Source of the DNA: Candidatus Uhrbacteria bacterium
Lineage (GTDB): Bacteria > Patescibacteriota > Patescibacteriia > JACQRZ01
DNA length: 64,000 bases
Direction of reading: 5' to 3'
NCBI GenBank assembly: GCA_016188385.1
Contig: JACPHV010000002.1
Coordinates: forward strand, 101,682-165,681
A program made the position numbers and the translations under genes. Each line of letters opens with the position of its first letter. Within the stretch, counting starts at the first letter, position 1. The notes under the pieces were generated by a model. The model saw nothing but the letters and a program-made list of their open reading frames with translations. It searched no databases and was not told where the DNA came from. Below are positions 41,021-59,692 of the stretch, piece by piece.

Positions 41021-42271
41021 CTAAGGCAAGAGGGACTTGAATAATTTTTTTACTCGGCTTCTGATATCAAAGCTATGCTCCAAGGAAATGAATGAGCGAT
41101 TGCCGCGATTGCGTTGCTGGTGCATGAATAATCCCCAATGCGCGATGCTCATTGCCGTCACAAAAGTCTGATCATGCACGCGATCAATGACATTAACGAC
41201 ATTTTTGAGCATCGCGTAAGCAACAGGCAATTTGAGACGCTTCTTCGCAATTTCCACGATACCGCCTAGTTTTGACCCGCCACCGGTAAGTATAGCGCCG
41301 CCGGGCAATATGCCGCTGCGGCCAATTTTTTTTAACTCGTGCTCAATCTTATCGAATATTTCTTCAACTCTCGCTTCGATGATCTGATGCACATACTTAG
41401 CCGAGACACTGCCTTGCTCCATCGCATCGAATTCCGACAAATGAATTTCACCCTTTTTGGGAGTTTCTCGGACGATAAGATCTCCGTATTCCAATTTTAT
41501 TTTTTCTGCGAGCTCAATCGAGATCCTTAGTCCGATCGCGATGTCGGATGTGATGTGATCTGATCCCATTGGAATGACGGCCGTATGCAATACCTCTCCC
41601 TCTTCATAGACGATCAAACTCGTTGTTGAAGCGCCTATATTGATTAAAACAACGCCGAGTTCTTTTTGCTTATTCGTCAACACAGCCTCGGCAGTGGCAA
41701 GAATTGAAAAAACAAGATCTTCTATTTCAAGATTTGTCCGATAGATGCATTTGGTAAAATTGCGGATTTCCGCCGCAAAACCTTGTATGACAAGCGCATC
41801 CACTTCAAGACGGCTCCCTGTCATTCCTATCGGATCCTTCGTCGAAATCTGTCCGTCAATAATAGAGCTTCTCGGGATTACATGCAAAATCTCATGATTT
41901 GGAGGGGTTGCGATCGTCCGTGCCGAATCCAAAGCGCGATCCACGTCTGATTTTGAAATCTCACCGTTTATTTTGCCAACAGCAATAATCCCACGGCATG
42001 TCTGGGACACAATATGCACTCCGGAAATTCCGACCAATGCGGATTCAATGGGAATCCCGCTCATCCGTTCCGCTTTCTCAATACAAGCGCTGATTGACGC
42101 TGAAGCATCATCAATACTGGTAATGGATCCCCGATTGACACCCTCTGAAGGATGTTCGGCAGCACCGAGGACTTGCAATTTATACTCAGTCCCCTCTTGA
42201 AAAATCTGGCTTACAACGGCACGGATTGCGCTGGACCCAACATCAAGTGCGGTAATAGTGATATCTTTCAT
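41021..42271 (-). CDS. ftsA: Cell division protein FtsA
   Basis: Actin-like ATPase (ITALDVGSSAIRAVV; VINIGASTTSLIVY; GGILPGGAILTGGGSKLGG). Lies upstream of ftsZ on the same strand. Confidence 0.85.
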   Translation of the reverse strand: MKDITITALDVGSSAIRAVVSQIFQEGTEYKLQVLGAAEHPSEGVNRGSITSIDDASASISACIEKAERMSGIPIESALVGISGVHIVSQTCRGIIAVGKINGEISKSDVDRALDSARTIATPPNHEILHVIPRSSIIDGQISTKDPIGMTGSRLEVDALVIQGFAAEIRNFTKCIYRTNLEIEDLVFSILATAEAVLTNKQKELGVVLINIGASTTSLIVYEEGEVLHTAVIPMGSDHITSDIAIGLRISIELAEKIKLEYGDLIVRETPKKGEIHLSEFDAMEQGSVSAKYVHQIIEARVEEIFDKIEHELKKIGRSGILPGGAILTGGGSKLGGIVEIAKKRLKLPVAYAMLKNVVNVIDRVHDQTFVTAMSIAHWGLFMHQQRNRGNRSFISLEHSFDIRSRVKKLFKSLLP

Positions 42272-42310: not shown

Positions 42311-42682
42311 TCAGTTAAAAGCGAAAGGGATAACGCGGGGTATAAAAAGCATGAGTCCGATAAGAAGCGCGCACAGGGCTAATACGAGCACTGCCGCACT
42401 TGAAAGATCTTTCATGTATCGCACGACCGGGGAAACGCGAGGTTTCATGGCATCAATGACGCGTTCGAGTACGCTATTAAATATTTCCGCCGTAAGAACA
42501 GCGCCGATTGTTAACAGTACTATCGCCCACTCAACCGAGCTGATGCGTAATACGAGAGCGGCAAGAACGATACTAGCAGCGATACCCGTCTGGATTCGAA
42601 AATTCTGTTCCTCTGAAAAAGCTATGCATAATCCGCGTTTTGCAGATTGTATGCTGCGAAAAAGTCGGTTGAAAGCATTCAT
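42311..42682 (-). CDS. dgkA: Diacylglycerol / undecaprenol kinase (DgkA family)
   Basis: Three TM helices. The conserved EQNFRIQ and AEIFNSVLERVIDA blocks are present. Confidence 0.75.
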   Translation of the reverse strand: MNAFNRLFRSIQSAKRGLCIAFSEEQNFRIQTGIAASIVLAALVLRISSVEWAIVLLTIGAVLTAEIFNSVLERVIDAMKPRVSPVVRYMKDLSSAAVLVLALCALLIGLMLFIPRVIPFAFN

Positions 42683-43146
42683 ACGGCCCTCTTTCCACTT
42701 TTTCCTAATAAAGCCAGAATCTTTGACGAAAGCTGATTCATGCGCCGTCGGTCAGGTGATGTAATATGGTCATATCCTTGTATATGTAAGATGCCATGAA
42801 CGATAACGCGTTCATACTCGGAGCCACGCGCTGATCCGTAGCGAACAGATTGCCTGATAATCTGTTCCGGACAGAGGTAGAGCTCTCCGTACGCCGTTTC
42901 ACCAGGCATATCGGCTGGATACAAAAACGAAAGCACATCGGTGATCCGGTCCTGGCCACGATATGTCTTGTTGATCGCACGCATTTTTTTACCATCAACA
43001 AATATGACCGTAATATCGGTTGTATTCCAGATTGAACATACACCTCTCGCCGCTTTAACAGCGATTCTGTACCATTCAATACTCTGAAACGTGCGAGGGA
43101 TCAGCTGTGTGCATGAAAACCCGCACGCAACTCGGACGGCTATCAT
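42679..43146 (-). CDS. ybeY: Endoribonuclease YbeY (rRNA maturation factor)
   Basis: Zinc-binding HGILHIQGYDH (H..HxxGxxH) motif. 155 aa. Confidence 0.8.
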   Translation of the reverse strand: MIAVRVACGFSCTQLIPRTFQSIEWYRIAVKAARGVCSIWNTTDITVIFVDGKKMRAINKTYRGQDRITDVLSFLYPADMPGETAYGELYLCPEQIIRQSVRYGSARGSEYERVIVHGILHIQGYDHITSPDRRRMNQLSSKILALLGKSGKRAV

Positions 43147-44231
43147 CGAACAAAAGAAAGGTCAGTAAACACAAAACTGCGAAGCATCATGCGGAATGTG
43201 GTCTGAAACTGCGGCTGCGCGCTTGTATTTTGATTATAAAGGAAAGAATAGACATAGGGCGCAATCACCCCTCCTGTTTCATCGGTTTTAACAAAATACG
43301 CGGCTAGCCCGTCCGGCGCCATGACTCCTGACCAATTATTAAATGAGAGAGATTGAAGCTGCGAAGTGTCAGCACTCGGATCAACCAGTGCTATGTACCA
43401 GTCAATAGCCCCCAGAGTTTGTGGGTTGTCCTGTACTTTAACGGAAATAAATTCACCGAGAGCGGAACTGATTACTACCTCACGATCAGAATCGTTTACC
43501 GCGCGGGCAGACCATGACGATGGGTAATAAAGCGAGTATGAAAATGTTGGATTTGTATAAGGAGTGACTCTTCCAGAAATCTCCAAACGAGCGCCGTCCG
43601 GACGGATTGGATCAAACAAGTGCTCAACCTCCTCACCATCAGTAAATCCATCACCGTCAGTGTCTTGAATCTGACTATTCGTGTTATACAGCCTCTCCTC
43701 GGTGTCTGTCAGTCCGTCTTGATCGCTATCCACGGCAACAATCGTTGGCAACTGCGGCTGTGTCGCTTCTTCTTGGATTGTCTCTTCCGAAAGAGGCTCG
43801 CTACCGCTGGGCGTCTCTGTTCCGGGTTCAAGCGCCACAGGCGTTTCCGTTTCAGGCAAAGGCGCTGAAGGTTCATCGGAAGGGACCTGTTCCTCCTCTG
43901 TCGGCTGCTGCGAATCCTCTTCTGATAATGGCTTTTCTTGCTGCTCCTCGACTGCTACTGATTGTTCCTCCTCCACCGAGATACTGGATTGCGGCGCATC
44001 ATTTTGAACATAAAACACAAAAAACAATATCCCTCCCGTAACCGCCAAAAGTAGGAATATCACCGCAATGATTAAAATCGGTTTTGCATTTGATTTGGTC
44101 GCACCGCGACGAAATTTCTCCGGCATCGCATATACCACAGCGTCAATCGACGGCGGTGTTTTTCCTGATGCGCGCGAGGATTCTTCTTTTGTGGATAATT
44201 CTTCTTCTAATAAATCAAACATACGAATCAA
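43143..44231 (-). CDS. Membrane-anchored surface protein with Glu/Pro-rich linker and TSP3 calcium-binding repeats
   Basis: N-terminal TM helix (ILIIAVIFLLLAVTGGILFFVFYV), then an acidic E/P/S/T-rich region, then DSDQDGLTDTEE and DTDGDGFTDGEE repeats, then a C-terminal beta-rich domain. Confidence 0.6.
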   Translation of the reverse strand: MIRMFDLLEEELSTKEESSRASGKTPPSIDAVVYAMPEKFRRGATKSNAKPILIIAVIFLLLAVTGGILFFVFYVQNDAPQSSISVEEEQSVAVEEQQEKPLSEEDSQQPTEEEQVPSDEPSAPLPETETPVALEPGTETPSGSEPLSEETIQEEATQPQLPTIVAVDSDQDGLTDTEERLYNTNSQIQDTDGDGFTDGEEVEHLFDPIRPDGARLEISGRVTPYTNPTFSYSLYYPSSWSARAVNDSDREVVISSALGEFISVKVQDNPQTLGAIDWYIALVDPSADTSQLQSLSFNNWSGVMAPDGLAAYFVKTDETGGVIAPYVYSFLYNQNTSAQPQFQTTFRMMLRSFVFTDLSFVR

Positions 44232-44311: not shown

Positions 44312-45088
44312 TTATTGTATGGGCAACACGCTTGGGAGTTTGCCGGCGCCATTCGGATCATATCCGTTTTTAATCTCTTCTCCATCCAAAAAACCATCCT
44401 TATCGCTGTCGGCATTGAGCGGATCGGTCCCATACACCATGAGTTCCTCTCGGTCGCTAAGCCCGTCACCATCAGTATCAAACAAGTTCGGGTTGGTCCC
44501 ATACTGGGCCTCTTGCTCATCGGGAAGACCGTCACCGTCTGTGTCAATAATAACAGGCGCGCTTTCATCTCCTTGGATGATCGTATCTGCTTGTCCTATG
44601 ATCGTATCTGCTTGTCCTGTCGGAGGCGATCCCTCGCTTACCGGAGGTTCCTCTTCCACTATCTGATTCTCGCCTATGGGTTGCCCCGCCTGATCTTCAA
44701 CAGGCTGATCTTCAAGCGTTGGTATCCCATTATCGGATACAGGTATTGAAAAAAGATCAACGGTAGGCTGTTCCGCTTGCTTGGGCTTGAATAAAAAAAT
44801 CAAACCGACTCCACCGCCGATGACCAGGACTAGAGCGACTATTGCGATCAATGCGAGGATCATATGCCGCTTGCCGGAACCAGATCCGGAGTCTTCATAT
44901 TCTTCCGTGGATTCTTCTCGTTCAGTTCCAAGTGTGGTGCTCTCCTCGATTTGTTCATCCTGCCCTTGATCGGCTGCTACTCCAGGCGGGGAGTTAGTTC
45001 CGCTTTCTTGCGAAAACATATCAACAGGCTCGCCATTTTTTTGTTCTTCTGGCGGTAGTGCCTCTTCCGGTTTTTTTTCATCAAACAT
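44312..45088 (-). CDS. Membrane-anchored acidic protein with three TSP3 calcium-binding repeats
   Basis: Acidic N-terminus, then a TM helix (ILALIAIVALVLVIGGGVGLIFLF). The C-terminal repeats are DTDGDGLPDEQE, DTDGDGLSDREE and DSDKDGFLDGEE. It contains a 7-aa tandem duplication, GQADTII x2. Confidence 0.6.
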   Translation of the reverse strand: MFDEKKPEEALPPEEQKNGEPVDMFSQESGTNSPPGVAADQGQDEQIEESTTLGTEREESTEEYEDSGSGSGKRHMILALIAIVALVLVIGGGVGLIFLFKPKQAEQPTVDLFSIPVSDNGIPTLEDQPVEDQAGQPIGENQIVEEEPPVSEGSPPTGQADTIIGQADTIIQGDESAPVIIDTDGDGLPDEQEAQYGTNPNLFDTDGDGLSDREELMVYGTDPLNADSDKDGFLDGEEIKNGYDPNGAGKLPSVLPIQ

Positions 45089-45179: not shown

Positions 45180-47744
45180 TTATTTGCTGTAATCTGAATT
45201 TGTATCCGTGCCTGTAAAAGGGTCATCTGCTCCTGACTGCAAAGTACACTGCCGTCGAAGTTTTGATTGAGATAACAAAGGATATTCGTATACTCCGCAG
45301 AGTTCGTACTTATCCAATGAAGTATTTGAAGCAGGCGTATGGAGATACGTATAGGCGGAAAGTTTTTTTGACGCCAACACATTTTTTACATTATCCCCTC
45401 GATCCACGATCGGAGGAGTCGTCGTGCTTTGCGACGGATCAAGCGGCATGGAAGCGCGCAATGCTTTGCCAAGCTCTTGCGCCCACGAAGGCCAGCCGGA
45501 AATGGTCTGTCCCAATGTATAACTCCCCGCGGAAAGAGCCGGATAACAGGTTGGATTACATTTGCCGCGCACTCGATATTGTTCAAGTTGATCATGGATA
45601 AAGCTGATATGCGCTGATCGCTGCGTATCACGGCGCAACGCCGCGCTCGCGTCAGCATCATCTTGCGGTGTTGCCAGACGAATGGTACGCATCAACTCCG
45701 TAAAGACCGCGCGCGACGGTCCGGCAGGATTCGCGCTGGTGGTAAAATTCAAAATCCGATAGGAAGTAATTGATGAGTTAGTATCCAGGACAGGCACGCT
45801 TATATAGTATCCTGTCCCGTCTTGGACCGCTGGGAATCCATTCACTATGGTATTCGAAGGGCGTTGGTTAGGATTGAGCTCATTACGCGCATACCATACG
45901 TCAGGAGAGAACTTGTTCGGATTGCGATAAGCGCGCATAACAATTAAATCAGTTGAGTTGGTAAACCGATAAAAATACTCTTCGAGCGGAGTGGAGCTTC
46001 CTGCCGAGAATCGATCCTTGACTTCGGTCGGATCACTCATTAATGCGGGCAGTGTTAATCCCTTCTTTGCGACACAGTAGGAAAGCCGATATTGATATTT
46101 ACCGGACGGATCGGCTGCCGTACCCGGCGTCTCCCAGAATTGATAACAATCTTTAATAGTGCATTGGTCCGCGTGCCCTGACGCATAACATTGATCGGCT
46201 GTCCACGCCGAAGATGTGGGATCGCATTGCTCCCCGCTATCTACCTGTCCATTGCCGCATGTTTCATCCGGTGTTACGACAGGCGTTGAACCCGTTGGTT
46301 TGATTACATCATTCACGAGAATAATCTGTGCCTGCTGGACAGTGCCGGCAAGAGGCAAAACAAATACGGTAAGTATCGCGCTACCGGGTTGATTTGTATT
46401 TTCTACGATCAAATCTGTTTCCTTGCCTGCGGAACCGATTTTTTGCACTTCACGAAAAGCCGGGCTCTCGCTCAACTCCCATCGGACTTGTCTGATCTTA
46501 TCCGTCCCAATCAAAGAATTGTTTTGCGCGTGCACGCGGAGCGAATACCGATGCTGGTTGCCCGTACGGCTTCCTGATCCCTTGTCGCTATCGTCTTCAC
46601 AGTCATCTGCGGTGCAGGAAAATCTGTCGATATCTATCGGTCGACCGTTGCTGTCTATGATTACGTGTTCAAAGATATTAGGGCTGCCTTGTTTGTCCGG
46701 TCTGCCGACGCATTGTACCGGGTTTGAGCCGGTTATGGTACATGATTGGTATGGGTGTTTATTTCCAATCGAGAGCGAAGCGGATCCCGCTACGCCATCT
46801 ACCCACGCGGTAACGGTTCCTGTGCCCGTGGACGTTGCCGTATCGCCAAGCAGCGTTCGGATGTGAATTCGTTTTGCTCCTGATTCGTCTGACAGTCGGT
46901 ATCTATCCGGCTTGTCGACCTTCCAGCGCACAAGAGAATCCGAAATCGCAACAACATTCCCTTGCAAATCCTTTACTTCCAACTCAAGCGCGTGTTGATT
47001 GTTTTGATCATTACCCGAAGTAAAGGAATCGTCGCGGCACGCATTGCCGATACAGCCAAACATGTCACGAGGCAAGAATTGGCCGTTTGACCGTATCCGC
47101 ATCGAACGAACCTGGAGTATTGACAAGAGATTTTCTACTTTTATCTCCGCGCTGAACGTCTCGGATCCTTCGCCATCAAGATTAGCGGTTGTAACGATTG
47201 CTTTAAGTGTTACGGGCTGCGTGGTATTTACTCCGCTATTTGTCAAATACACTTCCGTAGAACTTGCGCCGAGATTTGTCGAATTATCAGAAGCGCGAGT
47301 GATGATAATCGGTGAATTTGCGGGCGAAAGACTCCACTCAATCTTCTCAATAGGGTGCACTCCCGCGATATCATCCAGAGAAATAAAGCTGTTATCCTTA
47401 TCATGCAGCCGGAGTGAATATATTCTTTGGTTGCCGATAAAACGCGAGCTTTGGTCATTGGCGCAAGTATTGCCAAAACAGCTGAACCTGTCCGTAGTCA
47501 CCGGCTTTCCATTCGCGTCGATCGCCGCTCTTCGCGTTGAGTCCGTAGATACAGCCGCATGCGGCCCTCCTGTACAAGACGAACGGCCGCCGGTCAAGCA
47601 GGTGGCTCGCGGATGCTTGTTGGATACGGTCATTTCTAGCGTTGTCGTACCAGTCGCGTTAGCAACCGAAAGTTTTAGCAGTCCTTCTCCTTCGGAATCG
47701 GCATTCGTAAGCTCAACGCTACGGCCGATCCCGGACAAACGCAT
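45180..47744 (-). CDS. C-terminal module block of the giant repeat protein (separate ORF owing to a frame break at about 47.72-47.78 kb; possible pseudogene fragment or assembly artefact)
   Basis: 854 aa. It has three copies of the FxC.GN.C.DD...GNQH module of about 110 aa and one CGNGQVDSGEQCDP Cys-rich unit. It is colinear with, and about 45% identical to, the region of the upstream giant ORF that follows the duplicated 175-bp patch. The residues just upstream of its Met in the same frame (ISWELTASADA) continue the homology. Confidence 0.55.
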   Translation of the reverse strand: MRLSGIGRSVELTNADSEGEGLLKLSVANATGTTTLEMTVSNKHPRATCLTGGRSSCTGGPHAAVSTDSTRRAAIDANGKPVTTDRFSCFGNTCANDQSSRFIGNQRIYSLRLHDKDNSFISLDDIAGVHPIEKIEWSLSPANSPIIITRASDNSTNLGASSTEVYLTNSGVNTTQPVTLKAIVTTANLDGEGSETFSAEIKVENLLSILQVRSMRIRSNGQFLPRDMFGCIGNACRDDSFTSGNDQNNQHALELEVKDLQGNVVAISDSLVRWKVDKPDRYRLSDESGAKRIHIRTLLGDTATSTGTGTVTAWVDGVAGSASLSIGNKHPYQSCTITGSNPVQCVGRPDKQGSPNIFEHVIIDSNGRPIDIDRFSCTADDCEDDSDKGSGSRTGNQHRYSLRVHAQNNSLIGTDKIRQVRWELSESPAFREVQKIGSAGKETDLIVENTNQPGSAILTVFVLPLAGTVQQAQIILVNDVIKPTGSTPVVTPDETCGNGQVDSGEQCDPTSSAWTADQCYASGHADQCTIKDCYQFWETPGTAADPSGKYQYRLSYCVAKKGLTLPALMSDPTEVKDRFSAGSSTPLEEYFYRFTNSTDLIVMRAYRNPNKFSPDVWYARNELNPNQRPSNTIVNGFPAVQDGTGYYISVPVLDTNSSITSYRILNFTTSANPAGPSRAVFTELMRTIRLATPQDDADASAALRRDTQRSAHISFIHDQLEQYRVRGKCNPTCYPALSAGSYTLGQTISGWPSWAQELGKALRASMPLDPSQSTTTPPIVDRGDNVKNVLASKKLSAYTYLHTPASNTSLDKYELCGVYEYPLLSQSKLRRQCTLQSGADDPFTGTDTNSDYSK

Positions 47745-50700
47745 GGCATCCGCACTCGCCGTAAGTTCCCAGGAAATCAGCTACGATGCGGTGCTGGTTG
47801 CCGGGCATGGCTGAACTCGCGTCATCAGCGCAGGAGTTACCGATACAGCCGAACGCGTCAGAAGGAAGATAGTCGCCGTTGGTGGAGAGTCGGATGGCGG
47901 AAATAGCGCGCGTTACCGGTGTGGGCTCTACCACATCTTGTTCCCCATCATTGTCATCATCGTCATCTTCCTCTCGTATTCTGTCGGCAAGCTCGGTATC
48001 GTTCACGAGCACGATTTCTGTCGTGCGCACCGGCCCTTGGACAGGAAGCACAGTCACCGTTAAAGTCGCGCTGCCGGGTTTATCAGTATTTTCAATCACT
48101 ACTCTTTCTCCCTTCGTGCCCATAACTCGAAGAGGCCGCGGACCAAACGCATTCGATGCGCTCAATGTCCACTCGATCCGCCTGATCTGATCAAGCGGTA
48201 ATAAACGATTGTTCTGCGCGTGCATGCGCGCGTCATACGTATGCTGGTTTGCGGCGCGTGCTTGTTCACGATCATCTTCACAGGAGTCGCCTCTGCATGA
48301 AAAGACATCGCGCGAAATGGGTCTGCCGTTTGAGTCGATTGTAATGGTGTCGAGTATATTCACATTTCCCTGTTTGTCCGGATGTCCAACACATTGCCTG
48401 TCAGTGCCCGTCCCGGTACATCTCTGATAGGGATGTTTGTTGTCCAGCGCGATAGACGCGATGGCGGAAATACCATCGACACGAGCAGTGATAATACCGG
48501 AGCCCGTGCTTGTCGCCGCATCATTGATCAATGCCGAAACGTTCACTCTGCTGGTGCCCTGTTCGCTGGATAGATCAAAGAGGTCTTTACGGTCAAGCGA
48601 CCAATGCACTTTTGCCTGATCAATCGAAAGAACGCGCCTACCATCGGTGACTACGAGCTCAAGCGCATGCTGATTGCCGGCTGATCCGGCGGCTCGGTCA
48701 TCTTCGCAGCTATTCCCGGTGCAGCCGAAAGCGTCTTGATTCAAAAACTGGCCGTTGGATTTGATTAGGATGTCTCTGACAAGAAATGTTTGCACCTGAT
48801 TAATGACCTGAATGGAAGCTGTAATCGGATTCCCTTTACCGGTCACGGGCGTGACAGTCGCTGAAAGGGTCGCGGATCCGTCAACTTCGGTATTGGTGAG
48901 AATAATATCGAAGTCTTTAGTCCCTTCCGGGTTGTTCCGTGACGGGTCAAGATCGCGAAATGCCTTTCGGGAAGATGAGGCGTGAATGAGAGACCATTCA
49001 ATCTTTGCTATGTTTGTCGGATCGGCAAAGCTGCGGTTTTTGTTGTGCAGGCGCAATGAATACACGCGCTGATTGCCGGAAGTACCGGCAACGCGGTCAT
49101 TGAGGCAGTTATTTCCAAAGCAGGTGAATACATCAGTCCCGAGCGGCCGATCATTCGCTTCGATTGCGGCTTCGGCGATTTCATCTGCTCTGCCAGCCTG
49201 ATCGGGCCCGCCGATGCAACCGGCACGATTCGCGGTGAGACATTCCCGACGAGGAAATTTGTTTACGATCGGAATCGCTTTTGTCACTGACGAGCCGGAA
49301 ACGGAGACTGTCAGCGTAGCGCTTCCCTGATCAGCCGTATTTGTGGCAAAAATTGTCTTGCCGGAATCGCGGGACAAGACGACTGTGCTTGTTGCGCCTG
49401 AAAGCGCCCAGGAAATCCGCTCATCGGGTACCGAAAGAGCTTTGCCATTCGCGTCGAAGAAATCAGCTACGATGCGGTGCTGGTTGCCGGGCATGGCTGA
49501 ACTCGCGTCATCAGCGCACGAATTACCGATACAGCCGAACGCGTCAGAAGGAAGATAGTCGCCGTTGGTGGAGAGTCGGATGGCGGAAATAGCGCGCGTT
49601 ACCGGTGTGGGCTCTACCACATCTTGTTCCTCATCATTGATATTCTCGAGTTGTATTGTCACTCGTACATTCTGCTGTACCGTTTCATTTTTCGATCCGG
49701 TCGCTTTAACCGTTACAGTCGAGGTGCCATTTTGATTTTTCGGAGTCACCTGTATTGTGGGGGTGGACAAGGAACTTAAATCAACCAGAGCGGTACTCGT
49801 AGCCGTGGGTCCGGACGCAAACCATTCGATCTTGACAGGAGAGACTTCGCTTCCTTCCGCCGAATACGCCTTGATACGATAGGTATGCTGATTACCGCTT
49901 CTGACGGTATCTTGATCACCGGAACATCCTGTAAGAGCAGCGCAAGTAAACAAATCGGTTGTGGAAGCGTTCAGGGCGGTATTGATGAATATCTCAACAG
50001 TTGCGATTTCGGCAATCTCCGCGACAGGCGTGACTGGACCAGCGGATTTTTGGATCCATACTGATTTCTTGCACTGTTCGCCAAACCAAGAATTGCCTTC
50101 TTTCATTTGTAAAATCAGATTGACACGGCCTTGCGCAAGGGGCGTATAGGGACGGACGCCGAATGTGACGCGTTCCCCGGGTGCGATGGATCGTGATAAC
50201 GGCACAACGTCAAGTTCGGGCACTCTCACGGTGCCTGACGAACGCAGAGCAAAGATATGTGTCGCGGGATTCCATGTCTTGGTGCCCGCATTCTTAAGCG
50301 AAAATTCCAACAGGAAATCTTTATGTTCGTCAGTGATAAGCGGCAGATTTTGAGCTCGGCACGCATTCGTGCACGCATTCGTGTCATCAGTATCTCCGTC
50401 GTCACATTCCTCCGATCCTTCTTTAATCCCATTTCCGCACACTCCTTTGTTCAGACGACAATCGGTGCGGCAACGATCCGTATTGGATCGATTACCATCG
50501 TCGCACTGTTCCCCAGTCTCCAGTTTACCGTTGCCGCAGTACGGCAATGCCGTGTCACGCAGCGTGCAATCGTTGCGACAAAGATTGGCGTCAATGCGGT
50601 CGCCGTCGTCGCACTGTTCCGTTCCTTCCTTGATGCCGTTGCCGCAATAACCGGTATTGAGCTTGCACGCACTCGTACACGCGTCTGTGTTATCGAGATT

Positions 50701-53700
50701 GCCGTCGTCGCATTCTTCGCCGATTTGCGGATCTACGTTTCCATTGCCGCACCATGAACCGCCGAGATTCGTATTGCACGCGTTTGTGCAAGCGTTGATG
50801 GTAACGCGATCGCCGTCGTCGCACTGCTCCCCTGCTTCAATTACGCCGTTGCCGCAGGTGCCGGCATTCGCGCGGCAAGAATTGGAACACGCATCGTCGT
50901 TGTTCGTATTACCATCGTCGCATTGTTCTGTGCGATCGCGGACTCCATTACCGCACGTACTCGTCGGACGCGTACATGTATTTGTACACCCATCGTTAGT
51001 AACGCGGTTGCCGTCGTCGCATTGTTCACCGGCATCAAGGATACCGTTGCCGCAATACCCTGCATCAAGGACGCAGTCCGAGCGACATCGCCCGTTATTG
51101 GGCGTATCGGAACCGTCGCACTCTTCACCAGCCTCTTGTTTACCGTTGCCGCAGTACGGCAGTGCCGTGTCACGCAGCGTGCAATCGTTGCGACAAAGAT
51201 TGGCGTCAATGCGGTCGCCGTCGTCGCATTGTTCATCACCTTCCCGCAAACCGTCGCCGCAGAAAGGCTGCGATGTCCGAATCGTACAGAGCGCGTCATT
51301 GGTAAACTGTGGCGCCAAATTGACGGATGCCATGCACATCTCGCCGATTGGCGTATCACCCTCCATCAATTGCCAATGCAATGGTTTGACCCCTGTCACG
51401 ACAGGCGCGATCAGTGATGTCGTAATTTCAAGAAACTCCCCCGGGGCGATTTTAGGTTTGGAAACAGGAATCGCGATCACGCTTTTTGACCAGAAAGTAT
51501 TATCTAAAGGTGACTGGGATCGGATACGATACGAGGGCGTGCCTGTCGCGTTCCATGTGTTCGTGCCTGTATTTTCCAATCGTATCCGCGCGGTAAATGA
51601 ATGGCCTGAATCAAACTCGCCAGGCGCTATCCGGATAGTCTGGGGAGCATTGATCGTACAGCGCGCATTATGCGCGCTCACTACTCGAAGAGTGCAGTTG
51701 TTTCTGCAAAGATCGGCATCAATGCGGTCGCCGTCGTCGCACTGCTCTCCGGTCTCCTGAATCCCATTGCCGCAAAAACCCGTGTTCGGCTTGCAGTCAT
51801 TGGCGCAAGCATTCGTATTGATCCGATCGCCGTCGTCGCACTGCTCTGTTCCTTCTTTGGCGCCGTTGCCGCAGACAGGCGTTTTTGAACTTCCTGAACA
51901 ATCATTTTTGCATGCGTTGCTGTTATCTGTATCTCCGTCATCGCATTGTTCAGCGGCCTCTACCTTCCCATTACCGCAGTATGGCAGTGCCGCGTCACGC
52001 AGCGTGCAATTGTTTTTGCACAGATTACCATCAATACGGTCGCCGTCGTCGCATTGTTCCGTTCCTTCTTTGGCGCCGTTGCCGCAGAATCCCGCGTTGC
52101 CGGTACAATCATTCTTACAGGCGTTGCTGTTATCAGGATCGCCGTCGTCGCATTGTTCCGTTCCTTCTTTGGCGCCGTTGCCGCAATAACCAGCGTTGCC
52201 GGTACAATCGTTGCGGCACGCATCCGTGTTCACAGCATTGCCGTCATCGCACTGTTCGCTCCCTTCAACGACGGAATTGCCGCACCGCGGACCTGTACGA
52301 TTCAGCGTGCAATCATTTAAGCATTCGTTGGTGTTGAGACGATCTCCGTCATCGCATTGTTCATTCCCTTCTTTCAAGCCGTTGCCGCAGAAACCGGATC
52401 GAGGCGTACAGCTATTCCGACAAGCGTTTGCATCGTTCGTATCCCCGTCATCGCACTGCTCCGTACCATCTTTAATGCCATTGCCGCAGAATCCCGGGTT
52501 GCCGGTACAGTCATTGCGGCAGGCATCGGTATGTGTTGAATTGCCGTCGTCGCACTGCTCCGGATCTTCTCGGACTCCATCGCGGCATACCGGCCCGCCG
52601 GGGGTATTCAACCGACAGTCATTGCGGCAGGCATTCGTATCAATAGTATCGCCGTCATCGCATTGTTCCCCGTCATTTTTAATGCCATTGCCGCAACCGG
52701 TAGGATTTGATGCGCAATCGTTGCGGCACGCGTCAGTATTGATTTGATTTTTGTCATCGCACTGCTCCGTGCCTTGTTTGATGCCGTCACCGCACTGCGG
52801 CGAAGGACCGCCCTTGATCGTACAATCGTTGCGGCACGCGTCAGTGTCATCTTTGTTGCCGTCATCGCATTGTTCCCCGGCATTGATAATCTTATTTCCG
52901 CACCCTTCCGGATTCGCTTTGCAAGAATTCGAGCATGCGTTTGCGTCGTTTGTGTCACCGTCGTCGCACTCCTCCCCCGCTTCCAATGTGCCGTTGCGAC
53001 AAAAACCCGCGTTGCCGGTACAATCGTTGCGGCACGCGTCAGTACTAATAGTGTTGCCGTCATCGCACTGCTCATAGAGGTCGCGAATTCCGTCGGTACA
53101 GATTGGACGATTTGTATTTATCGAACAATTATTATGGCAGGTATCATCATTGACCGCGTTGCCGTCATCGCACTGCTCCGTTCCTTCTTTTTTACCATTG
53201 CCGCATTGGTTCGCGTTTGAGCTGCATACATTACTGCAGCCGTTCTTGTCATCCTTATCACCGTCGTCGCATTGCTCGGCTCCTTCTTTCATTCCATTGC
53301 CGCAGAATCCTGGCTTGCCGGTACAGTCATTGCGGCAGGCATTTTCATTGTCTTTATCACCGTCGTCGCATTGCTCTCCGTAATCAACTTTGCCATTACC
53401 GCAAGTTGGCGGATTTGGATTTACGCTTTGACATTCGGGCCGAGTGGAGCAATCAGAACATGTGCAGGATTCATTTGCTTCGCATCTTCCGTTTGAATTA
53501 CATGACCCGCCGTTGCGCGGCGATATGACACGAATGTTCTTGACGCAACGCTCCCCGAACCAAGTATCTTTGTTACGCATTTGCCAAGCAAATGCGTAGG
53601 TACCTGCCGCGGCGGGCGCGGTTACTTGAGTTGAAACGCTGGAAGAGGTCTTAGCGTTTATTGAGGATGGCAATACAACAGATGTTCTTCCCCAAAGGGA

Positions 53701-56273
53701 GGTGTAGGGCGGCTGTTGGCTCGAAAGCACATAATCAGCCGAACTCCAGTTGGCAGTCCCTGTATTTTCAAGGCGCAATTGAGCTGAAAAAACTTGCCCG
53801 ATGGTAACTTCCGCGGGGACGGTGGCGCTACACCTTGCATTATCGGTCGGCAGCACGGAAATGACTACTTTAGCCTGACAGCTCTTCGTATCCGCGTTGC
53901 ACGCAAATCCTGTCTGGCAAGAACTTTGCTTCCCAAAACAATCAGCGCAGTTGCAGGACTCACTGCTGTCGCATATGCCGTTGGTATTGCATGAAGATGG
54001 CTTGCAGGAGGGATCCAAAGGACTGCGGCACTGCCCATCACCGCATTTCACAAGCCCCTCGGAACACCCGTCTTTAGCGTTCGGGTTCTTTTTCGCATTG
54101 GGGCACGCGGATCCCTCTTCGCATTTTGATGCCACCCCATTGCATGTCGTGCTGCTGCCAGTACATGTTGATTTGGGGCCGCTGCACGTAGATCCGGCCG
54201 TACAATTCGAACCTCCGCCTGTACACTGTGTCGCAATGCCTGAACAGCTCGAATCAATGCCAGTGCACCTCGCTCCGTTGGAACAGCGTGATTCACTGCC
54301 GGTACAGGTAGTGCCGGGATCGGAACACTGCGATTTGCTGCCGGTGCAGGTTGCGCCTTTCACGCACGAGGAACCATTGCCCTCGCATACGGTACCTGCT
54401 CCGGAACATGATGAATCAATTGCTTTGCATTGCGCGGTGTTTGAGCATTGTGAACCGACTGTTGTGCACGTTTGCTTTGCTTTGTCGCACACAGAAGGTT
54501 GTACGGTGCGTTTCGGCGGTTTGCCGACACATGCCGCGCCGGACTTGCATTCCGAGCCATCGCCAAGACATCGTGTCCCAAGCCCATCGCAGCGGGAATT
54601 GATACCCGCGCATTCAGCTCGATCGCGGCATTGGGATCCGCTGTTCGTGCATTGCGTCCCTGTTCCGATACACGTTGAACCGGTTCCCGTGCATGTGGCT
54701 CCATCAAGGCATTTTGAACCTGCTCCCGTACAGACTGTCCCTTTTCCGGAACAGATAGCCGTTCCGCCGATGCAGCGCGCGCCGTTGCTGCAGATATCAC
54801 CCTCTTTTTTACACGTCACGCCACGTGTAGAGCATGTATCTGAAACCGTGAGGGTGCATACCCCAAGCGATCCGTTCCCCGATACTGATTGGATGGAATC
54901 CCCGAGTACCACTCGATACGCCACCCTGGAAGCAAGCGGCTGACTTGGACGATACGCTACCTCTGTCTTTGCTGAATCGCCGCTTCCCACGGTAGCAATT
55001 TCTAAATCACCCGGCACTGCCGGCTCAATGCGAATATTTGGACGGACTGAATCCTCCTTCAACAGCTGATTAAATTTCACCCGGAATACGGAATTGCGAT
55101 ACACTCGCTCTGTTGGCTTGGGGATAATAGATTCTACGGAAACGCAGCGTTTTGATTGTCCGCATGTGCCGCCGACGCAATTGTTTGTTGAACACTCTCG
55201 ATCGTTACGGCAATCATCTCCAATTGATTTGTTTCCCGCAACGCATACGCCATCTTTGCACGTACCGGACGCGCATGCCGAATTGCCAGTGCATGCCTGG
55301 CCGATATCTTTGCCGGAAAGCGAGCACGCGCCCAACTCGCATACAAGACCCGTTCGACACTGCGCGTCAAATTCGCAAAAAGCATCAAGCCCGCCAGTGC
55401 CACGGACGCAAACGCCACCCTCGCACCGATTCGATGAGCACTGATCGTTCACTTCGCATTGTCCGCCAATATCATTTTTTTCTCCGGTAAAAAAATTCCA
55501 TGCGTATCGACACGCCACGACTTCCTGTCCGCATTGCCCGTCAGGACGGCAGGATCCATCAGAGCAGCATTGCTGACCAGCCCCGCAATTCTGCGCGGCG
55601 CAACGGGACGCGGATGTAAGATTGATGGGATTGCTTATCGTTCGAAAAGATGTGATTACTCGCAGCTTTGTCGGTGTCGCTTCGAGTGACGGCATCAATG
55701 CGGTAATTTTGTTCGCAGACCATTCATTTTCTCCGATCGGAATATCAACGGAACCGGCGACGAGCCTGCCCTTTTCATTGCCAAACCCGATTCCGTACAC
55801 GGTAAGCGCAAGTCCAGGCGGTCCGTTATCCGGCTCCATGCCGCAAATGCCCGGATTGGGAGCGGCGCCAGTCACGATAAAGGGGGTTGTGTTGCTTACG
55901 GTACCGTCCGCTGTTTTTACCGCCACCGTATAGCTGCCTTCGGAAATACCGCGTGGGACTTTCACGGCTACATACGAGTCGCGCCAATAGAGTTTTTTGC
56001 ACTCTCCGGAAAAATCAACATCCGCGGGAACTGATTGTCCGCTTTTGGTGAACAAAACTTCTCCGACGGCGTATCCAAAGCCGGAACCGTCGAGTGTGAC
56101 GTACTGCCCCTTTCCGCCTGACGCAGGCCATGCTTTCACGATTGTCGGCGCAGAATTGGCGTTCTGCGTATTCTGCTGTGCTGCGACGAAAGAAAACACC
56201 ACAATAAGAGCTAGCATGCTTGCGATGCCTGTGATACTGCCGATGAGGAGTGATATAATCTTGCGTTTCATAT
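47719..56273 (-). CDS. Giant (about 2,850 aa) secreted/membrane-anchored repeat protein: IPT/TIG-like N-terminal domains, multiple Cys-rich blocks including about 35 tandem Myxococcus-type cysteine-rich repeats, and Ig-like modules
   Basis: The start is set at MKRKIISLLIGSITGIASMLALIVVF (signal/anchor), 56271-56273; the track ORF extends to 56475. The central about 1,100 aa is tandem units of CGNG(I/A)KE(G/A)(T/G)EQCDDGD....N.C(R/K)NDC. The C-terminal third holds the FGC.GNSC.DD...GNQH modules. Confidence 0.7.
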
Positions 56274-56290
56274 CGTCAGGAACACGTGCG

Positions 56291-57967
56291 TTATGGACGC
56301 GGAGACGGACCAACACAGGGATTAAAGCAATTTTGAAAAACGTCTCGCGCTGATGCCCGCACTTCCGGTTGATAAAGGGTGTCCTTTTGCAATGGATCAT
56401 GTCGCAGACGCGCGCGCGTGCGCGTCGATGTCGCTGATTGTTCTGACTCAACCCAATAACTTCCATCAATACCAAGATAGATCGAACCCTGATGAAGAGA
56501 ATTCAGATCCATGTATTTTGAAAAAGTAATATCAATAGGCGTGCTCACGTCCACCTTCGTACTATCGCGCGAAGGACTGACAGATTCGATTGCCGGAGGC
56601 GTTGAATCAAGATTCTGCGTGATCGTGAACGACCAAACAAAATTATCAGCGGGCGGACCGTCTGCCTTATCATTGCGTTCGGATCCATTCCTGCCTCCGC
56701 CATCAAGAGAGTTGCCGGCCGCATCCGCGATTCCGTCATAAGGGTAGGATGCTCGATGCGGATTCTCGGCTGTGCGTTGATCCGCCAATGATGCAGCTCG
56801 TACCGATACTTGATATCTTCCGCCTTTCTCGGGAAAACAATATATGGACTCTCTACAGCTATTCGTTCCGCAGAGCTCGCGCGGTACGAACGTCACCGTA
56901 CGATATTGATTGCCGACAAGGATCGTGCCGGGTACTGATGCTCCGGTTTCAAGATTTTGCACCGATATTTTTTCACCGCTCACAAGCGATGGGTCGAGCG
57001 CTTCGGAAAAAGAAATTTGCACGAGCGCGTTGCGCGCAACAGTTGATTCTTGATCCGCATTCCCAATGGCAGGAAACACATGGGTGACACGCGGCGGATC
57101 ATTGTCAACAACTCCGCTCACCTGAAACTGCCAGGAATACCCGCCCGTGTTGCCAAAAAGTGACTCACCGTTTTTTGATAGGATAGCGCTGGTGAGAGAT
57201 ATGCCGTAAAGCGATTGCGTATCCGGCATCCCCAATAACTGTACTGGCGCGATCACTATTGATTTCTCATCGTCTGTAAGTGACACTTCTGCCAGAACCC
57301 CTTGGCCATCGGGAGTGGGAGTAGGAGAGATTTGATGAATCCGGACGCTTGCGGAAAGCAACGAACCGTCTTCTGAACGGACACTATGCGCACGGATGGA
57401 TTCTCTGAATGTGATAAGAATTTTAGCATTACGAGGAACATTTTTCTCGTCACGCGCCGGATAGTGCGATTCGATGCGGGATTGCCTGCTCTGATATTCA
57501 CCGAAATAGACCGGCTGCGAGATGTCTGTCGGGCTAAAAGTCGAAGGAGGCTGGGCAACATACGATTGCGCAAAACGCGAATAGATAAAGGTGATGGCAC
57601 CGAAAAGCACCAGCCCGATGACTGCGGTAAGCGTGCCAAGAATAAGAAATCGTTTTGCCGATGCCTCCTCGGCGAGATCTTCGTCCTCACGAGCTCTCCG
57701 CAAACGGACAAACCCGAATATGTCGAAAGCGATGCCGATTATCGTTGTGATGACCCATATAATTTGTAGCAAGCGCAAGACGATGAGTCGCGCGTCATTT
57801 GCCGGAAGGCCAAGCGCGCGCGCAAATCCAGTCGCTTCTTGCGCGTGCGCGATAAACGGTACTGCAAAAAAAATCACTGCGATAAGACACCCCTGCAAAA
57901 ATACGCGGGGCCAACGAGATGTGCGTTTTTTAATGCGCATCAGGAGCGCATGAGTGCTCAATGACAC
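56291..57967 (-). CDS. Hypothetical membrane protein with extracellular Ig-like domains
   Basis: N-terminal signal-like helix plus two further TM helices (IVLRLLQIIWVITTIIGIAF; FLILGTLTAVIGLVLFGAITFIY), then a beta-rich body. It ends 18 nt before the giant ORF start. Confidence 0.55.
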   Translation of the reverse strand: MSLSTHALLMRIKKRTSRWPRVFLQGCLIAVIFFAVPFIAHAQEATGFARALGLPANDARLIVLRLLQIIWVITTIIGIAFDIFGFVRLRRAREDEDLAEEASAKRFLILGTLTAVIGLVLFGAITFIYSRFAQSYVAQPPSTFSPTDISQPVYFGEYQSRQSRIESHYPARDEKNVPRNAKILITFRESIRAHSVRSEDGSLLSASVRIHQISPTPTPDGQGVLAEVSLTDDEKSIVIAPVQLLGMPDTQSLYGISLTSAILSKNGESLFGNTGGYSWQFQVSGVVDNDPPRVTHVFPAIGNADQESTVARNALVQISFSEALDPSLVSGEKISVQNLETGASVPGTILVGNQYRTVTFVPRELCGTNSCRESIYCFPEKGGRYQVSVRAASLADQRTAENPHRASYPYDGIADAAGNSLDGGGRNGSERNDKADGPPADNFVWSFTITQNLDSTPPAIESVSPSRDSTKVDVSTPIDITFSKYMDLNSLHQGSIYLGIDGSYWVESEQSATSTRTRARLRHDPLQKDTLYQPEVRASARDVFQNCFNPCVGPSPRP

Positions 57968-58012: not shown

Positions 58013-58264
58013 TTAAAGCTTCATGAGCGCTTTTGTTCCGGGAAATCTGTCTTTGAGCTTTCCAATTTTCTTAAGATATTCCTTTTTTTCTTCGATCATC
58101 CTGCGGCGCAACGCTGTCGTCTGTTTTGCTGCCGCGCTTTTCTTCCGAGAATAAAAACGAATCTTCTTTACTTGCAATATCCTTCCGCTTTGCTGTATCT
58201 GGCGATTGAATCTTCGCAGCAATGCCTCAAACGATTCCTTTTGTTTTCTTCGTACTTCCGGCAT
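58013..58264 (-). CDS. rpsU: 30S ribosomal protein S21
   Basis: MPEVRRKQKESFEALLRRFNRQIQQSGRILQVKKIRFYSRK matches the bS21 pattern (MP.V.V..E.FE.ALRRFKR....G.L.E.R.R.FYEKP). 83 aa. Confidence 0.65.
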   Translation of the reverse strand: MPEVRRKQKESFEALLRRFNRQIQQSGRILQVKKIRFYSRKKSAAAKQTTALRRRMIEEKKEYLKKIGKLKDRFPGTKALMKL

Positions 58265-58267
58265 GTG

Positions 58268-59692
58268 TCACCCTCCTTTCTGTTGTTCACCATGAAGCTT
58301 CTTGCGAAGCGTTGGTATTAATTTTTTTATATCGATGACTTCTTGTTCTCCACCCCCCATATTACGAATGATAATACTCCCGTCAAGCAGTTCTTTTTGA
58401 CCGAGAATAATTGTCAGTGTCGCGTTGCATTTGTTGGCGATCTCGAGCTGTGCTTTAAGACTATCTTTCGCGAATTCCGCCGCTACGGTAAAACCCTCCC
58501 GTAACAAATCTTCATACAAAACCATTGCCCGCCGTTTTGGCTGCTCCCCAAGCTGCGCGACGAAAATCTCCGGTTCCGCGCGCCGCGGGATCAGCTTCGT
58601 GCCGCTTGCTTTCTCAAGCTCCTTTAATTTCATCACGACTCGCTCGATGCCGATACCGAATCCCGCCGCGGGAGTGCTTAGTCCGCCGAACATCTCGATG
58701 AGGTCATCATAGCGCCCTCCACCGCCAAGCGCGGCCATCCGCGCTGATTGGACATCGGATTCGTTTGTATTCATGACCGCATAAAATTCAAAAACCGTGC
58801 GCGTATAGTAATCCAATCCGCGTACAAGATGCGGATTTGGCTGATAAGGAATCTCAAGTTCGTCAAGACATTCAAGTACTGCGATAAAATGGTCGCGGCA
58901 CGCGTCGCAGAGCGAATCCACGATCGGAGGCGCTTTCGAAATAAGGCTTTGGCACGTCTCGACTTTGCAATCAAGGAGTCGAAGCACATTTTTATTCAGC
59001 CGCCTTTTGCAATCATCGCAAAGCGATGCCCGACGGGCACGATAGTATTCAACAAGCGATTCACGGTACGCGATCCGGCATGAACGGCAGCCTATGCTGT
59101 TCACCTGCACAATCGGTTTGATATGCAATGACGTCAGTAATTTGTATCCAAGCAAGATAAGCTGCGCGTCGACAACCGGCTTGCCTTCGCCGATCACTTC
59201 GCAATTCCATTGCGTATGCTGACGATATCTCCCCTCTTGCGGCTTTTCGTGCCGAAAGAGCGGCCCGAAGGCATAGAGCTTTACCGGCTGCGGCAAAGAA
59301 ACCATTCCGTGCTCGATGTAAGCGCGTGCTATGCCAGCAGTAAACTCCGGCCGCAGCGCGAGATTGTCTCCGCCTTGATCCGTAAAACTGTACATCTCTT
59401 TTTCCACGATATCCGTCTGTTTGCCCAATCCAGCCGTATATACATTCAAATGCTCCACTATCGGAGTGTCAATCCGCATAAAAAGATAGTCATCTCCGAT
59501 CTTTTTAACGATTGATCGAATGTGCTCCCAATATATCTGATCGTGCGGCAAAACATCCTTCATTCCTTTGACAAGCTGGGGTTGCTTGCTTAACCGAGTA
59601 ATGCTCGGGTTGGGCTTGTCACTTTGTTTTATCAATTCTTCTGCTTTTTTTATTCGTGGCATGTGTCGTGTACCGTTACATGTTAACCTCAC
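58268..59692 (-). CDS. hisS: Histidyl-tRNA synthetase
   Basis: KGMKDVLP (compare E. coli RGMNDYLP), class II motifs, the GGGGRYDDL HisRS signature, the insertion domain (CDDCKRRLNKNVLRLLD matches E. coli DEDCKRRMYTNPLRVLD), and a C-terminal anticodon-binding domain. Confidence 0.85.
   Translation of the reverse strand: MRLTCNGTRHMPRIKKAEELIKQSDKPNPSITRLSKQPQLVKGMKDVLPHDQIYWEHIRSIVKKIGDDYLFMRIDTPIVEHLNVYTAGLGKQTDIVEKEMYSFTDQGGDNLALRPEFTAGIARAYIEHGMVSLPQPVKLYAFGPLFRHEKPQEGRYRQHTQWNCEVIGEGKPVVDAQLILLGYKLLTSLHIKPIVQVNSIGCRSCRIAYRESLVEYYRARRASLCDDCKRRLNKNVLRLLDCKVETCQSLISKAPPIVDSLCDACRDHFIAVLECLDELEIPYQPNPHLVRGLDYYTRTVFEFYAVMNTNESDVQSARMAALGGGGRYDDLIEMFGGLSTPAAGFGIGIERVVMKLKELEKASGTKLIPRRAEPEIFVAQLGEQPKRRAMVLYEDLLREGFTVAAEFAKDSLKAQLEIANKCNATLTIILGQKELLDGSIIIRNMGGGEQEVIDIKKLIPTLRKKLHGEQQKGG

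Follow-up and report, generated by a model that had tools for sequence, protein, structure and literature searches.

Most bacteria of the candidate phyla radiation (CPR, Patescibacteria) are uncultivated and are thought to live attached to other cells, and their surface machinery is largely unannotated. In Peregrinibacteria, Cys-rich extracellular proteins of more than 1,600 residues have been described, with about 7% Cys, a signal peptide and a weak similarity to Myxococcus repeats, and a role in attachment was proposed for them (Anantharaman et al. 2016, PMC4736985). Pilins of the VirB2-like type, on the other hand, occur widely among Patescibacteria, and in one cultivated species an array of such pilins is reported to be essential (bioRxiv 10.1101/2025.01.22.634366). 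In the present work we consider a giant gene on the minus strand of a 64,000-nucleotide stretch of DNA from Candidatus Uhrbacteria (contig JACPHV010000002.1), which is called the window below when its full length is meant. The encoded protein resembles those of Peregrinibacteria in being large, in having a Cys content of 7.3% and in containing Myxococcus-type repeats. While the Peregrinibacteria proteins come from another phylum, are encoded by a multi-gene cluster and have not been dissected into domains (PMC4736985), we are dealing here with a single positional ortholog at a lepB...ftsZ locus, and with a defined conserved cassette.

The gene appears in the assembly as two overlapping open reading frames (ORFs), ORF1 and ORF2, which are one gene, not two. 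Its product would be one giant modular envelope protein of ca 3,712 residues in the intact form, and we consider it probable that this is an anchored, disulfide-stiffened surface stalk or adhesin. The N-terminal part consists of a signal peptide or anchor, two TIG domains, a Cys-knot cluster, a Big_5 domain and a Cys ladder with a period of 27 residues. The middle part is formed by an NBR1-type immunoglobulin-like (Ig) domain, 17 DUF4215 units, a second NBR1-type Ig domain, nine DUF4215 units and a third NBR1-type Ig domain. Nine Big_2-like Ig modules, called GNQH modules here, follow, and then one more DUF4215 unit and a C-terminal domain of ca 330 residues. The features of the gene are given below.

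47719..56271, minus strand: ORF1, 2,850 residues plus stop, the 5' three-quarters of the giant gene
45180..47744, minus strand: ORF2, 854 residues plus stop, in another frame, the 3' quarter of the giant gene
56179..56271, minus strand: signal peptide or signal anchor, residues 1-31, the only hydrophobic segment of the protein
55603..56151, minus strand: two IPT/TIG domains, residues 41-138 and 139-223, from Pfam
55147..55611, minus strand: Cys-knot cluster of the C..G.C...G.C type, residues 221-375, with a weak DUF7107 match below the cut-off
54871..55140, minus strand: Big_5 Ig-like domain, residues 378-467, borderline at 23.5 bits versus a cut-off of 23.6
53872..54858, minus strand: Cys ladder (the 'C.G.GS.C' series), residues 472-800, a 27-residue unit repeated about nine times
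53518..53868, minus strand: NBR1-type Ig domain a (PF16158), from Pfam
51694..53403, minus strand: DUF4215/TIGR02232 array 1, 17 units of 33-36 residues with four Cys each, from hidden Markov models (HMMs) and a regular expression
51310..51669, minus strand: NBR1-type Ig domain b, interrupting the DUF4215 array, from Pfam
50359..51261, minus strand: DUF4215/TIGR02232 array 2, nine units, from HMMs and a regular expression
50047..50340, minus strand: NBR1-type Ig domain c, from Pfam
47995..50016, minus strand: GNQH modules M1-M5 with the F.C.GN.C.DD Cys loop, from the alignment and AlphaFold2 (AF2)
49459..49648, minus strand: partner of the near-identical tract, in module M2, from sequence comparison
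47773..47962, minus strand: near-identical tract of ca 183 nt with 4 mismatches, common to 49459-49648
47773..47781, minus strand: frame-break junction, with GCTGATTTC before the break and CTGGG after it, 47 nt being absent relative to the paralogous copy
47613..47922, minus strand: GNQH module M6, disrupted, in the ORF1 frame and then in the ORF2 frame, ca 16 residues short
46305..47555, minus strand: GNQH modules M7-M9, in ORF2, from the alignment
46179..46259, minus strand: single degenerate DUF4215-like unit (CGNGQVDSGEQCDP...) before the C-terminal domain, from a regular expression
45183..46157, minus strand: conserved C-terminal domain, ORF2 residues ca 530-854 (ca 330 residues), with a predicted local distance difference test score (pLDDT) of ca 85-94 for the core of the AF2 model

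ORF1 is the largest ORF of the region, and the mechanical ORF call extends it to 47719-56475 (minus strand). The upstream gene ends at 56291, however, and the next ATG is at 56271, from which the frame runs to the stop at 47719-47721. The very long minus-strand ORF of 2,850 residues reported in the first-pass annotation is thus confirmed, while its end coordinate, 56273, is two bases out of frame. That annotation also treated the following 854-residue ORF as separate, and it overlooked both the frame break and the conserved C-terminal domain. ORF2 is 100% identical to the NCBI entry HYV71_00800, a hypothetical protein of Candidatus Uhrbacteria encoded on a 184-kb contig, which agrees with the CPR-type origin that had been suggested for the DNA, and it overlaps ORF1 by 26 nt. 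Its frame opens just past a TAG at the junction and reads ISWELTAS...TVSNKHPRATC, which is the normal continuation of a module (the other copy has ISWALSGA...IVNKFPRREC). When the 47 missing nucleotides are put back, one uninterrupted ORF of 3,712 residues is obtained, ending at the stop of ORF2. We have compared the locus with those of nine relatives from Uhrbacteria, Kerfeldbacteria and the Parcubacteria group (loci L001, L002 and L004-L010), and in all nine of them only one ORF, of 1,846-4,255 residues, lies between the Big_5 gene and the TSP3 gene. The orthologs P0003 (1,901 residues) and P0006 (4,255 residues) have the N-terminal region, the GNQH modules and the C-terminal domain of ORF2 in one polypeptide, with identities to ORF1 in the N-terminal region, from residue ca 35-40 on, of 38% and 31%, respectively. 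Because the ORF2 frame continues module M6, the restored sequence is open throughout and the relatives have a single ORF, ORF1 and ORF2 are one gene.

We now turn to the Cys-rich repeats, which the first-pass annotation had assigned to the Myxococcus family. The HMM searches proposed there bear this out, with scores far over the cut-offs. TIGR02232 (myxo_disulf_rpt, the 'cysteine-rich acidic repeat' of NCBIfam) matches 24 stretches of ORF1 with E=1.2e-110 and 361 bits versus a cut-off of 20.8, and PF13948 (DUF4215, Pfam) matches 11 stretches with 135.5 bits versus a cut-off of 27. Using a regular expression, 26 units are counted in ORF1 and one degenerate unit in ORF2, instead of the ca 35 estimated earlier. 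The array was expected at 50.3-53.6 kb and is found at 50359-53403, but it is not uninterrupted: 17 and nine units are separated by an NBR1-type Ig domain. The spacing from one unit start to the next is 33-36 residues (99-108 nt) rather than the 38-42 previously given, with one gap of 171 residues that corresponds to this Ig domain. In the 25 units of standard length (27 residues), C1, C12, C23, C27, E10 and D13 are invariant, around an E.CDDG core. The mean DNA identity between the units is 63% and the maximum 86%, and a collapse or expansion of the array in assembly is therefore unlikely.

In comparison with the known Myxococcus cysteine-rich repeat proteins, the 26 (+1) units match the same HMMs and have the four Cys and the core CGNG....E.CDDG[DN]......C...C. 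The difference is that the repeats here make up one stalk segment among several domain types and are a lineage-specific expansion. The closest orthologs have 0-4 DUF4215 units (counted as E[QE]CD cores), with none in P0003. Both the expansion of DUF4215 and the presence of NBR1-type Ig domains are peculiar to this genome. The TIGR02232/DUF4215 family has no assigned function, being a DUF in Pfam, and a study of diatom adhesive trails agrees with this. Membership therefore names the repeats but does not explain them.

The nine GNQH modules have a length of ca 120-140 residues. Six of them are in ORF1, the last one being cut off, and three are in ORF2. There are two alternating subtypes, one of which is followed by an NKHP..C...C linker. 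A module with the signature F.C.GN.C.DD...GNQH had been noticed before, in at least eight copies of ca 110 residues. It is real and repeated, and in 8 aligned copies nine positions are invariant (D22, F24, C26, C31, D34, N42, Q43, W67 and N116); both its number and its length are corrected here to the values above. The module was furthermore described as novel. Indeed, no Pfam family reaches its threshold for the GNQH modules (Invasin_D3 has E=0.004 in two modules, under its cut-off), PF02368 (Big_2) gives no match in 8 modules even at E<=10, and a PDB sequence search with the module profile found nothing. Structure prediction and profile comparison, however, point to a known superfamily. The AF2 model, calculated from eight copies, is all-beta with 8 strands and has a pLDDT of 81.7 and a predicted template-modelling score of 0.75, its low-confidence part being the loop from the Cys pair to GNQH. 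The Foldseek matches of this model in the PDB are the SbsC S-layer domains, NUP210, the C-terminal Ig domain of lambda gpV, InvE/InvD, LigB and Rib, with template-modelling (TM) scores of 0.45-0.65.

An exhaustive search with the GNQH profile at E<=1e-3 through 1.84 billion cluster representatives matched 64 proteins. The profile matches genuine Big_2 arrays, namely P0007 (E=1e-20, 19 stretches) and P0010 (E=1e-13, 10 stretches), which are classic Big_2 arrays by Pfam with 597 and 352 bits. Both match at profile positions 45-123, that is, the part of the module past the Cys loop. Aligning the GNQH alignment to the Big_2 repeats of P0007/P0010 with hhalign gives a probability of 93.6%, and the aligned stretch begins at the Q-H of GNQH and extends to the module end, with the motif at the start of the Big_2 core. 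On the basis of the AF2 model, the Foldseek matches, the profile matches to Big_2 arrays and the hhalign result, the GNQH module is a divergent Ig-like domain of the Big_2 superfamily with a short inserted Cys loop, and so does not represent a novel type of module. In common with Big_2 domains (PF02368; intimin/invasin, LigB, lambda gpV) it has a predicted Ig-like beta-sandwich with the GNQH motif at the core start, while it differs from them by the additional invariant D.F.C....C..D loop before the core and by the lack of a Pfam Big_2 score.

The F.C....C..D...GNQH signature is present in ca 50 of the 64 representatives. Those members for which a source is named come from metagenome-assembled genomes of Uhrbacteria, Kerfeldbacteria, the Parcubacteria group or 'Patescibacteria group', the exceptions being one 'bacterium' and one 2.5-kb contig binned as Methanosarcinales. 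The GNQH type is a distinct and rare subtype of these Ig domains. The C.GN.C.DD of the GNQH loop looks like a shortened form of the CGNG....E.CDDG core found in the adjoining DUF4215 units; this likeness could be due to a shared metal-binding chemistry or to coincidence.

The C-terminal domain is the only part of the protein without a match in any library searched, with no match in Pfam, in NCBIfam or among the PDB sequences. Foldseek comparisons of its model gave nothing meaningful either, the best results being E 0.05 with a TM score of 0.15 (kinases) in the PDB and E 0.011 with a TM score of 0.25 in BFVD. Homology searches by word index, made with ORF2 and with an alignment of the C-terminal domain, gave, among the matches listed, only the query or one partial Patescibacteria protein, and a locus search with a 4-sequence alignment gave only the contig of P0004. 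This contig (CAZKXN010000005.1, locus L003) is labelled Gammaproteobacteria although the protein is a close relative, and the bin is probably mislabelled. By iterative search, the domain was found in ca 50 retrieved representatives. Of the 43 with a strong match, 41 also carry the GNQH signature upstream of it; the median separation, counted from the motif to where the C-terminal-domain match begins, is 149 residues. The GNQH Ig module and the C-terminal domain therefore constitute a conserved two-domain cassette. Most family members have one GNQH module, while in the protein of the window and in the orthologs closest to it the module has been amplified. Homologs carry further domains behind the cassette, namely PA14, Lectin_C, Laminin_G_3 or Toxin_R_bind_N.

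In a 14-sequence alignment of the C-terminal domain, the residues C49, Y72, W133, Y163, R221, D222, R225, P251, G256 and S265 are invariant. A helix motif of the domain, RRD..RI.DL..I..LL..Y....G.YP.L..G at ORF2 residues ca 700-740, looks like the alpha1C/'YP' motif of GspG-type pseudopilins. The pseudopilin GspG is also the only PDB sequence match of the domain profile, with a non-significant E=1.3 over a 29-residue motif (R-I-x-D-L-x-x-I-x-x-L-L-x-x-Y-x-x-x-x-G-x-Y-P). This likeness is a lead, nothing more. Assignment of the domain as a type IV pilin or a pseudopilin of the type II secretion system was considered and rejected: there is no preceding hydrophobic segment, GspG reaches only the E value just given and no pilin is among the Foldseek matches.

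The regions upstream of the repeat array contain the Cys-rich blocks and the two IPT/TIG-like domains that were noted in the first reading. The IPT/TIG domains (PF01833) obtain 24.1 and 21.5 bits in separate scans, over the cut-off of 20.9, and are not listed in the whole-protein Pfam scan at E<=0.01. The Big_5 domain is found at the same position in the orthologs P0003 and P0006. The Cys ladder (residues 472-800) has a very regular Cys-to-Cys spacing of 7,7,7,6 in its 27-residue unit with 4 Cys, is common to P0006 and has no Pfam or NCBIfam family match; it could be a disulfide-laddered solenoid. N_BRCA1_IG (PF16158) matches the three NBR1-type stretches with 69.8 bits versus a cut-off of 28.

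Long plus-strand ORFs of 100-367 residues extend across the repeat arrays, for example at 50657-51760 and 53897-54943. They are by-products of the repetitive, stop-poor complement and not genes. We have also considered the repeats as a target of a diversity-generating retroelement. This was rejected, as all repeats of at least 70 nt in the window are inside the gene, with no inverted repeats and no template/variable pair.

The genes around the giant gene are the following.

60611-62041, plus strand: LytR-family gene
59699-60301, minus strand: signal peptidase I (lepB)
58268-59692, minus strand: HisRS (hisS)
58013-58264, minus strand: ribosomal protein S21 (rpsU)
56291..57967, minus strand: upstream 558-residue protein with a signal peptide, two transmembrane helices and three Big_5 domains
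44312-45088 and 43143-44231, minus strand: two downstream TSP3-repeat proteins of 258 and 362 residues, membrane-anchored
42679-43146, minus strand: YbeY
41021-42271, minus strand: FtsA
39759-40928, minus strand: 389-residue ORF at the FtsZ position of the relatives, assigned by position only

In both downstream proteins, the N-terminal region is acidic and of low complexity, and one transmembrane helix and bacterial TSP3 repeats of the Ca-binding type are present; the second one has in addition a C-terminal domain of ca 150 residues without a family match. The order lepB-hisS-(HIT)-rpsU-(YqeY)-Big_5 protein-giant-TSP3 protein(s)-ybeY-dgkA-ftsA-ftsZ is found in nine out of nine relatives. This makes the giant gene a positional ortholog, located among housekeeping genes and with a lineage-specific stalk content. 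It was described earlier as the largest gene in the window and as unusual for a streamlined gene set; the former is correct, while the latter does not hold, since the same locus has a giant gene in all nine CPR relatives. The GC content is 51-55% at 46000-56000 versus 44-50% in most of the window, and it follows the Gly/Cys/Asp-rich repeats. Horizontal acquisition as the origin of the higher GC was rejected, as the locus is syntenic in the relatives and the composition tracks these repeats.

Among relatives of the Parcubacteria type, a PF18895 domain (T4SS_pilin, VirB2-like, with two transmembrane helices) stands at the start of the giant protein, of the upstream protein or of both. Such starts are seen in the upstream orthologs at L007 5371-7926 and L010 5098-7998 and in the giants P0021, P0031, P0040 and P0046. 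A profile of these N-termini weakly matches residues 27-134 of the 558-residue protein of the window, with 22 bits. The giant protein of the window gives no match to this profile, and a VirB2-like domain was rejected for it. Neither virB4 nor any other gene of a type IV secretion system is present in the conserved locus. The connection to the VirB2-like pilins is thus that the Parcubacteria-type proteins begin with the same domain, with a weak counterpart in the upstream protein here, while the giant protein of the window lacks it and the locus lacks the secretion genes. In these proteins, the PF18895 domain may have no other task than to anchor them in the membrane by two helices.

What could the giant protein do? 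All its domains are of the extracytoplasmic type and are located behind an N-terminal signal or anchor, and an exported surface protein is therefore the natural reading of the sequence. The high Cys content, the hydrophobic segment, the membrane and envelope proteins encoded in the neighborhood and the signal peptidase I gene a few genes upstream are in line with this. After export through the Sec pathway, the protein would stay at the membrane, either because its N-terminus retains it there or because it interacts with the membrane proteins encoded on both sides. It would then form a long stalk similar to those of fibrillar adhesins, with disulfides and probably also Ca2+ providing stiffness, and would present the cassette of GNQH-Ig and C-terminal domain, probably acting together with the co-conserved Big_5 protein upstream and the TSP3-repeat proteins downstream. 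The function would be surface architecture and/or attachment. As to the stalk, 27 DUF4215 units are present together with nine Big_2-like, three NBR1-type Ig, two TIG and one Big_5 domain, in agreement with the domain content of fibrillar adhesins. Like the fibrillar and giant adhesins SiiE, BAP and the 7,651-residue adhesin of Mobiluncus, the protein has a long tandem-repeat stalk of varying length, and surface exposure is predicted for it. In contrast to them, it has a predicted N-terminal anchor and a predicted disulfide-rich stalk, no LPXTG or type I secretion signal and no known adhesive tip, and it is encoded at a chromosomal, conserved and housekeeping-linked locus. That it acts as an adhesin for host attachment is an inference, in favor of which one can mention, by analogy, the lectin-type domains of homologs and the earlier proposal for Cys-rich CPR proteins, both of which would favor a role in interactions.

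It is necessary to mention the points that weigh against an anchored stalk or adhesin. The anchor predictions that had been called for gave one N-terminal hydrophobic segment (residues 4-30, the only one in the protein), identified by hydropathy alone, which could be either a cleaved signal peptide or an anchor. Neither an LPXTG motif nor a C-terminal hydrophobic tail was found in the protein, and anchoring by sortase was accordingly rejected. The Pfam and NCBIfam scans revealed no recognised ligand-binding domain in this protein, and the C-terminal domain has neither a functional annotation nor a fold match. As assembled, the ORF1 product would be a stalk without the cassette, and that of ORF2 would have no export signal. 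Finally, the position next to ybeY-dgkA-ftsA-ftsZ and the non-variable cassette suit a housekeeping role in the envelope at least as well.

This last point brings us to the main rival, a structural envelope component, that is, an S-layer or wall-associated scaffold built together with the flanking Big_5 and TSP3 proteins and not involved in host attachment. It is kept alive by the strict positional conservation amid housekeeping and division genes across Uhrbacteria, Kerfeldbacteria and the Parcubacteria group. The cassette is likewise conserved across these lineages, the neighboring genes encode Ca-binding TSP3 repeats and, among the fold matches of the Ig module, SbsC S-layer domains rank first. 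The SbsC match is, however, generic for Ig-like folds (TM scores of 0.5-0.65), and no SLH or other known S-layer anchoring domain was found in the Pfam and NCBIfam scans. Proteins of 1,800-4,300 residues are also large for a lattice-forming S-layer protein, and the ca 2.3-fold variation of the orthologs in length and domain content, together with the lectin-type domains in homologs, is the pattern of interaction proteins. We therefore consider a purely structural role to be unlikely, although deserving of attention. Another option is a secreted effector, similar to polymorphic toxins, with the C-terminal domain as active payload, since an unannotated domain of ca 330 residues at the C-terminus behind long repeats would resemble the layout of such toxins. 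But the domain is conserved across lineages and not swapped, it is internal in most homologs, with a median of 695 residues after it, and its invariant residues (C, Y, W, R, D, P, G, S) form no recognisable catalytic set. The adjacent genes encode the conserved TSP3 proteins instead of a small immunity-like protein. This scenario is thus highly improbable, and an anchored surface stalk or adhesin is still the reading that we prefer.

A different set of alternatives concerns the split of the gene. The modules around the break belong to two copies of a 1,686-nt super-repeat, each comprising four GNQH modules, with ca 50% DNA identity outside the near-identical tract. ORF1 goes out of the module register exactly at the end of this tract and reaches its stop 20 codons further on, and the 47 missing nucleotides are located, as compared to the paralogous copy, between two GATTTC microhomologies. 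The tract looks like a patch of gene conversion whose end coincides exactly with the frame break, and the split would have arisen through a loss of 47 nt at the edge of this patch, between the copies of the internal duplication. It is quite conceivable, although we lean against it, that the deletion is real, caused by microhomology-mediated recombination between the internal repeats, and that the gene is a pseudogene in this genome with the two ORFs as remnants. The location of the break at the end of the 183-nt patch, the GATTTC sequences and the shortening of module M6 by about 16 residues are all consistent with this. Because a shared sequence of 6-11 nt is presumably too short for a k-mer mis-join in assembly, the microhomology favors a template-switch or recombination event, either in vivo or in vitro. 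On the other hand, the gene is intact in all nine relatives, a minority or chimeric variant can enter a metagenome consensus, and apart from the junction the two ORFs are stop-free over 8.5 and 2.6 kb with all conserved motifs kept. The deletion, if real, must therefore be very recent. An artefact of assembly or sequencing in this repetitive gene, which could then also affect the repeat count, appears somewhat doubtful to us. The source is a metagenome-assembled genome, and the gene contains some repeated exact 30-mers as well as the internal duplication with its near-identical tract. However, the 4 mismatches in the tract do not fit a simple duplicated read path, the microhomology at the junction is shorter than any assembler k-mer and the DUF4215 units are, as discussed above, too different from each other for the array to have readily collapsed or expanded. 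Exact-match scans of metagenome and genome contigs with the junction flanks found no other assembly.

To put these results into context, giant Cys-rich extracellular CPR proteins with similarity to Myxococcus repeats were already known, as were the repeat and Ig-like families. What is new is that ORF1 and ORF2 belong to one gene, the break in which has been defined, that the GNQH Ig subtype is fixed together with an unannotated domain of ca 330 residues, and that the gene belongs to a four-gene envelope block which is conserved next to division genes in several CPR lineages. This block comprises the Big_5 membrane protein with its weakly VirB2-like N-terminus, the giant protein and the two membrane proteins with Ca-binding-type TSP3 repeats. 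For the annotation, it follows that ORF1 and ORF2 should be merged or flagged as a frameshifted gene, that the Cys repeats should be labelled DUF4215 and that the 'novel module' should be labelled Big_2-like Ig.

The largest gene in the window is thus no accessory adhesin present by chance, but a component with a conserved position by the cell-division genes. The stalk differs between lineages and is inflated here by 26 DUF4215 repeats and nine Ig modules, while the cassette is conserved. Both the cassette and the four-gene block lend themselves to structural work, and to transposon-sequencing and localisation work in cultivable Patescibacteria. One can speculate further, although we regard it as rather unlikely, that the GNQH-Ig and the C-terminal domain are the core of an undescribed surface apparatus found throughout Patescibacteria and encoded by a fixed four-gene block immediately upstream of ybeY-dgkA-ftsA-ftsZ, and that the C-terminal domain has a new fold. 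The significance would rise if the cassette indeed turned out to be a new fold at the heart of such a CPR-wide structure. The apparatus would in that case be a lineage-defining envelope or attachment structure of the CPR, and it might be connected with the VirB2-like pilin systems without which epibiotic growth does not take place.

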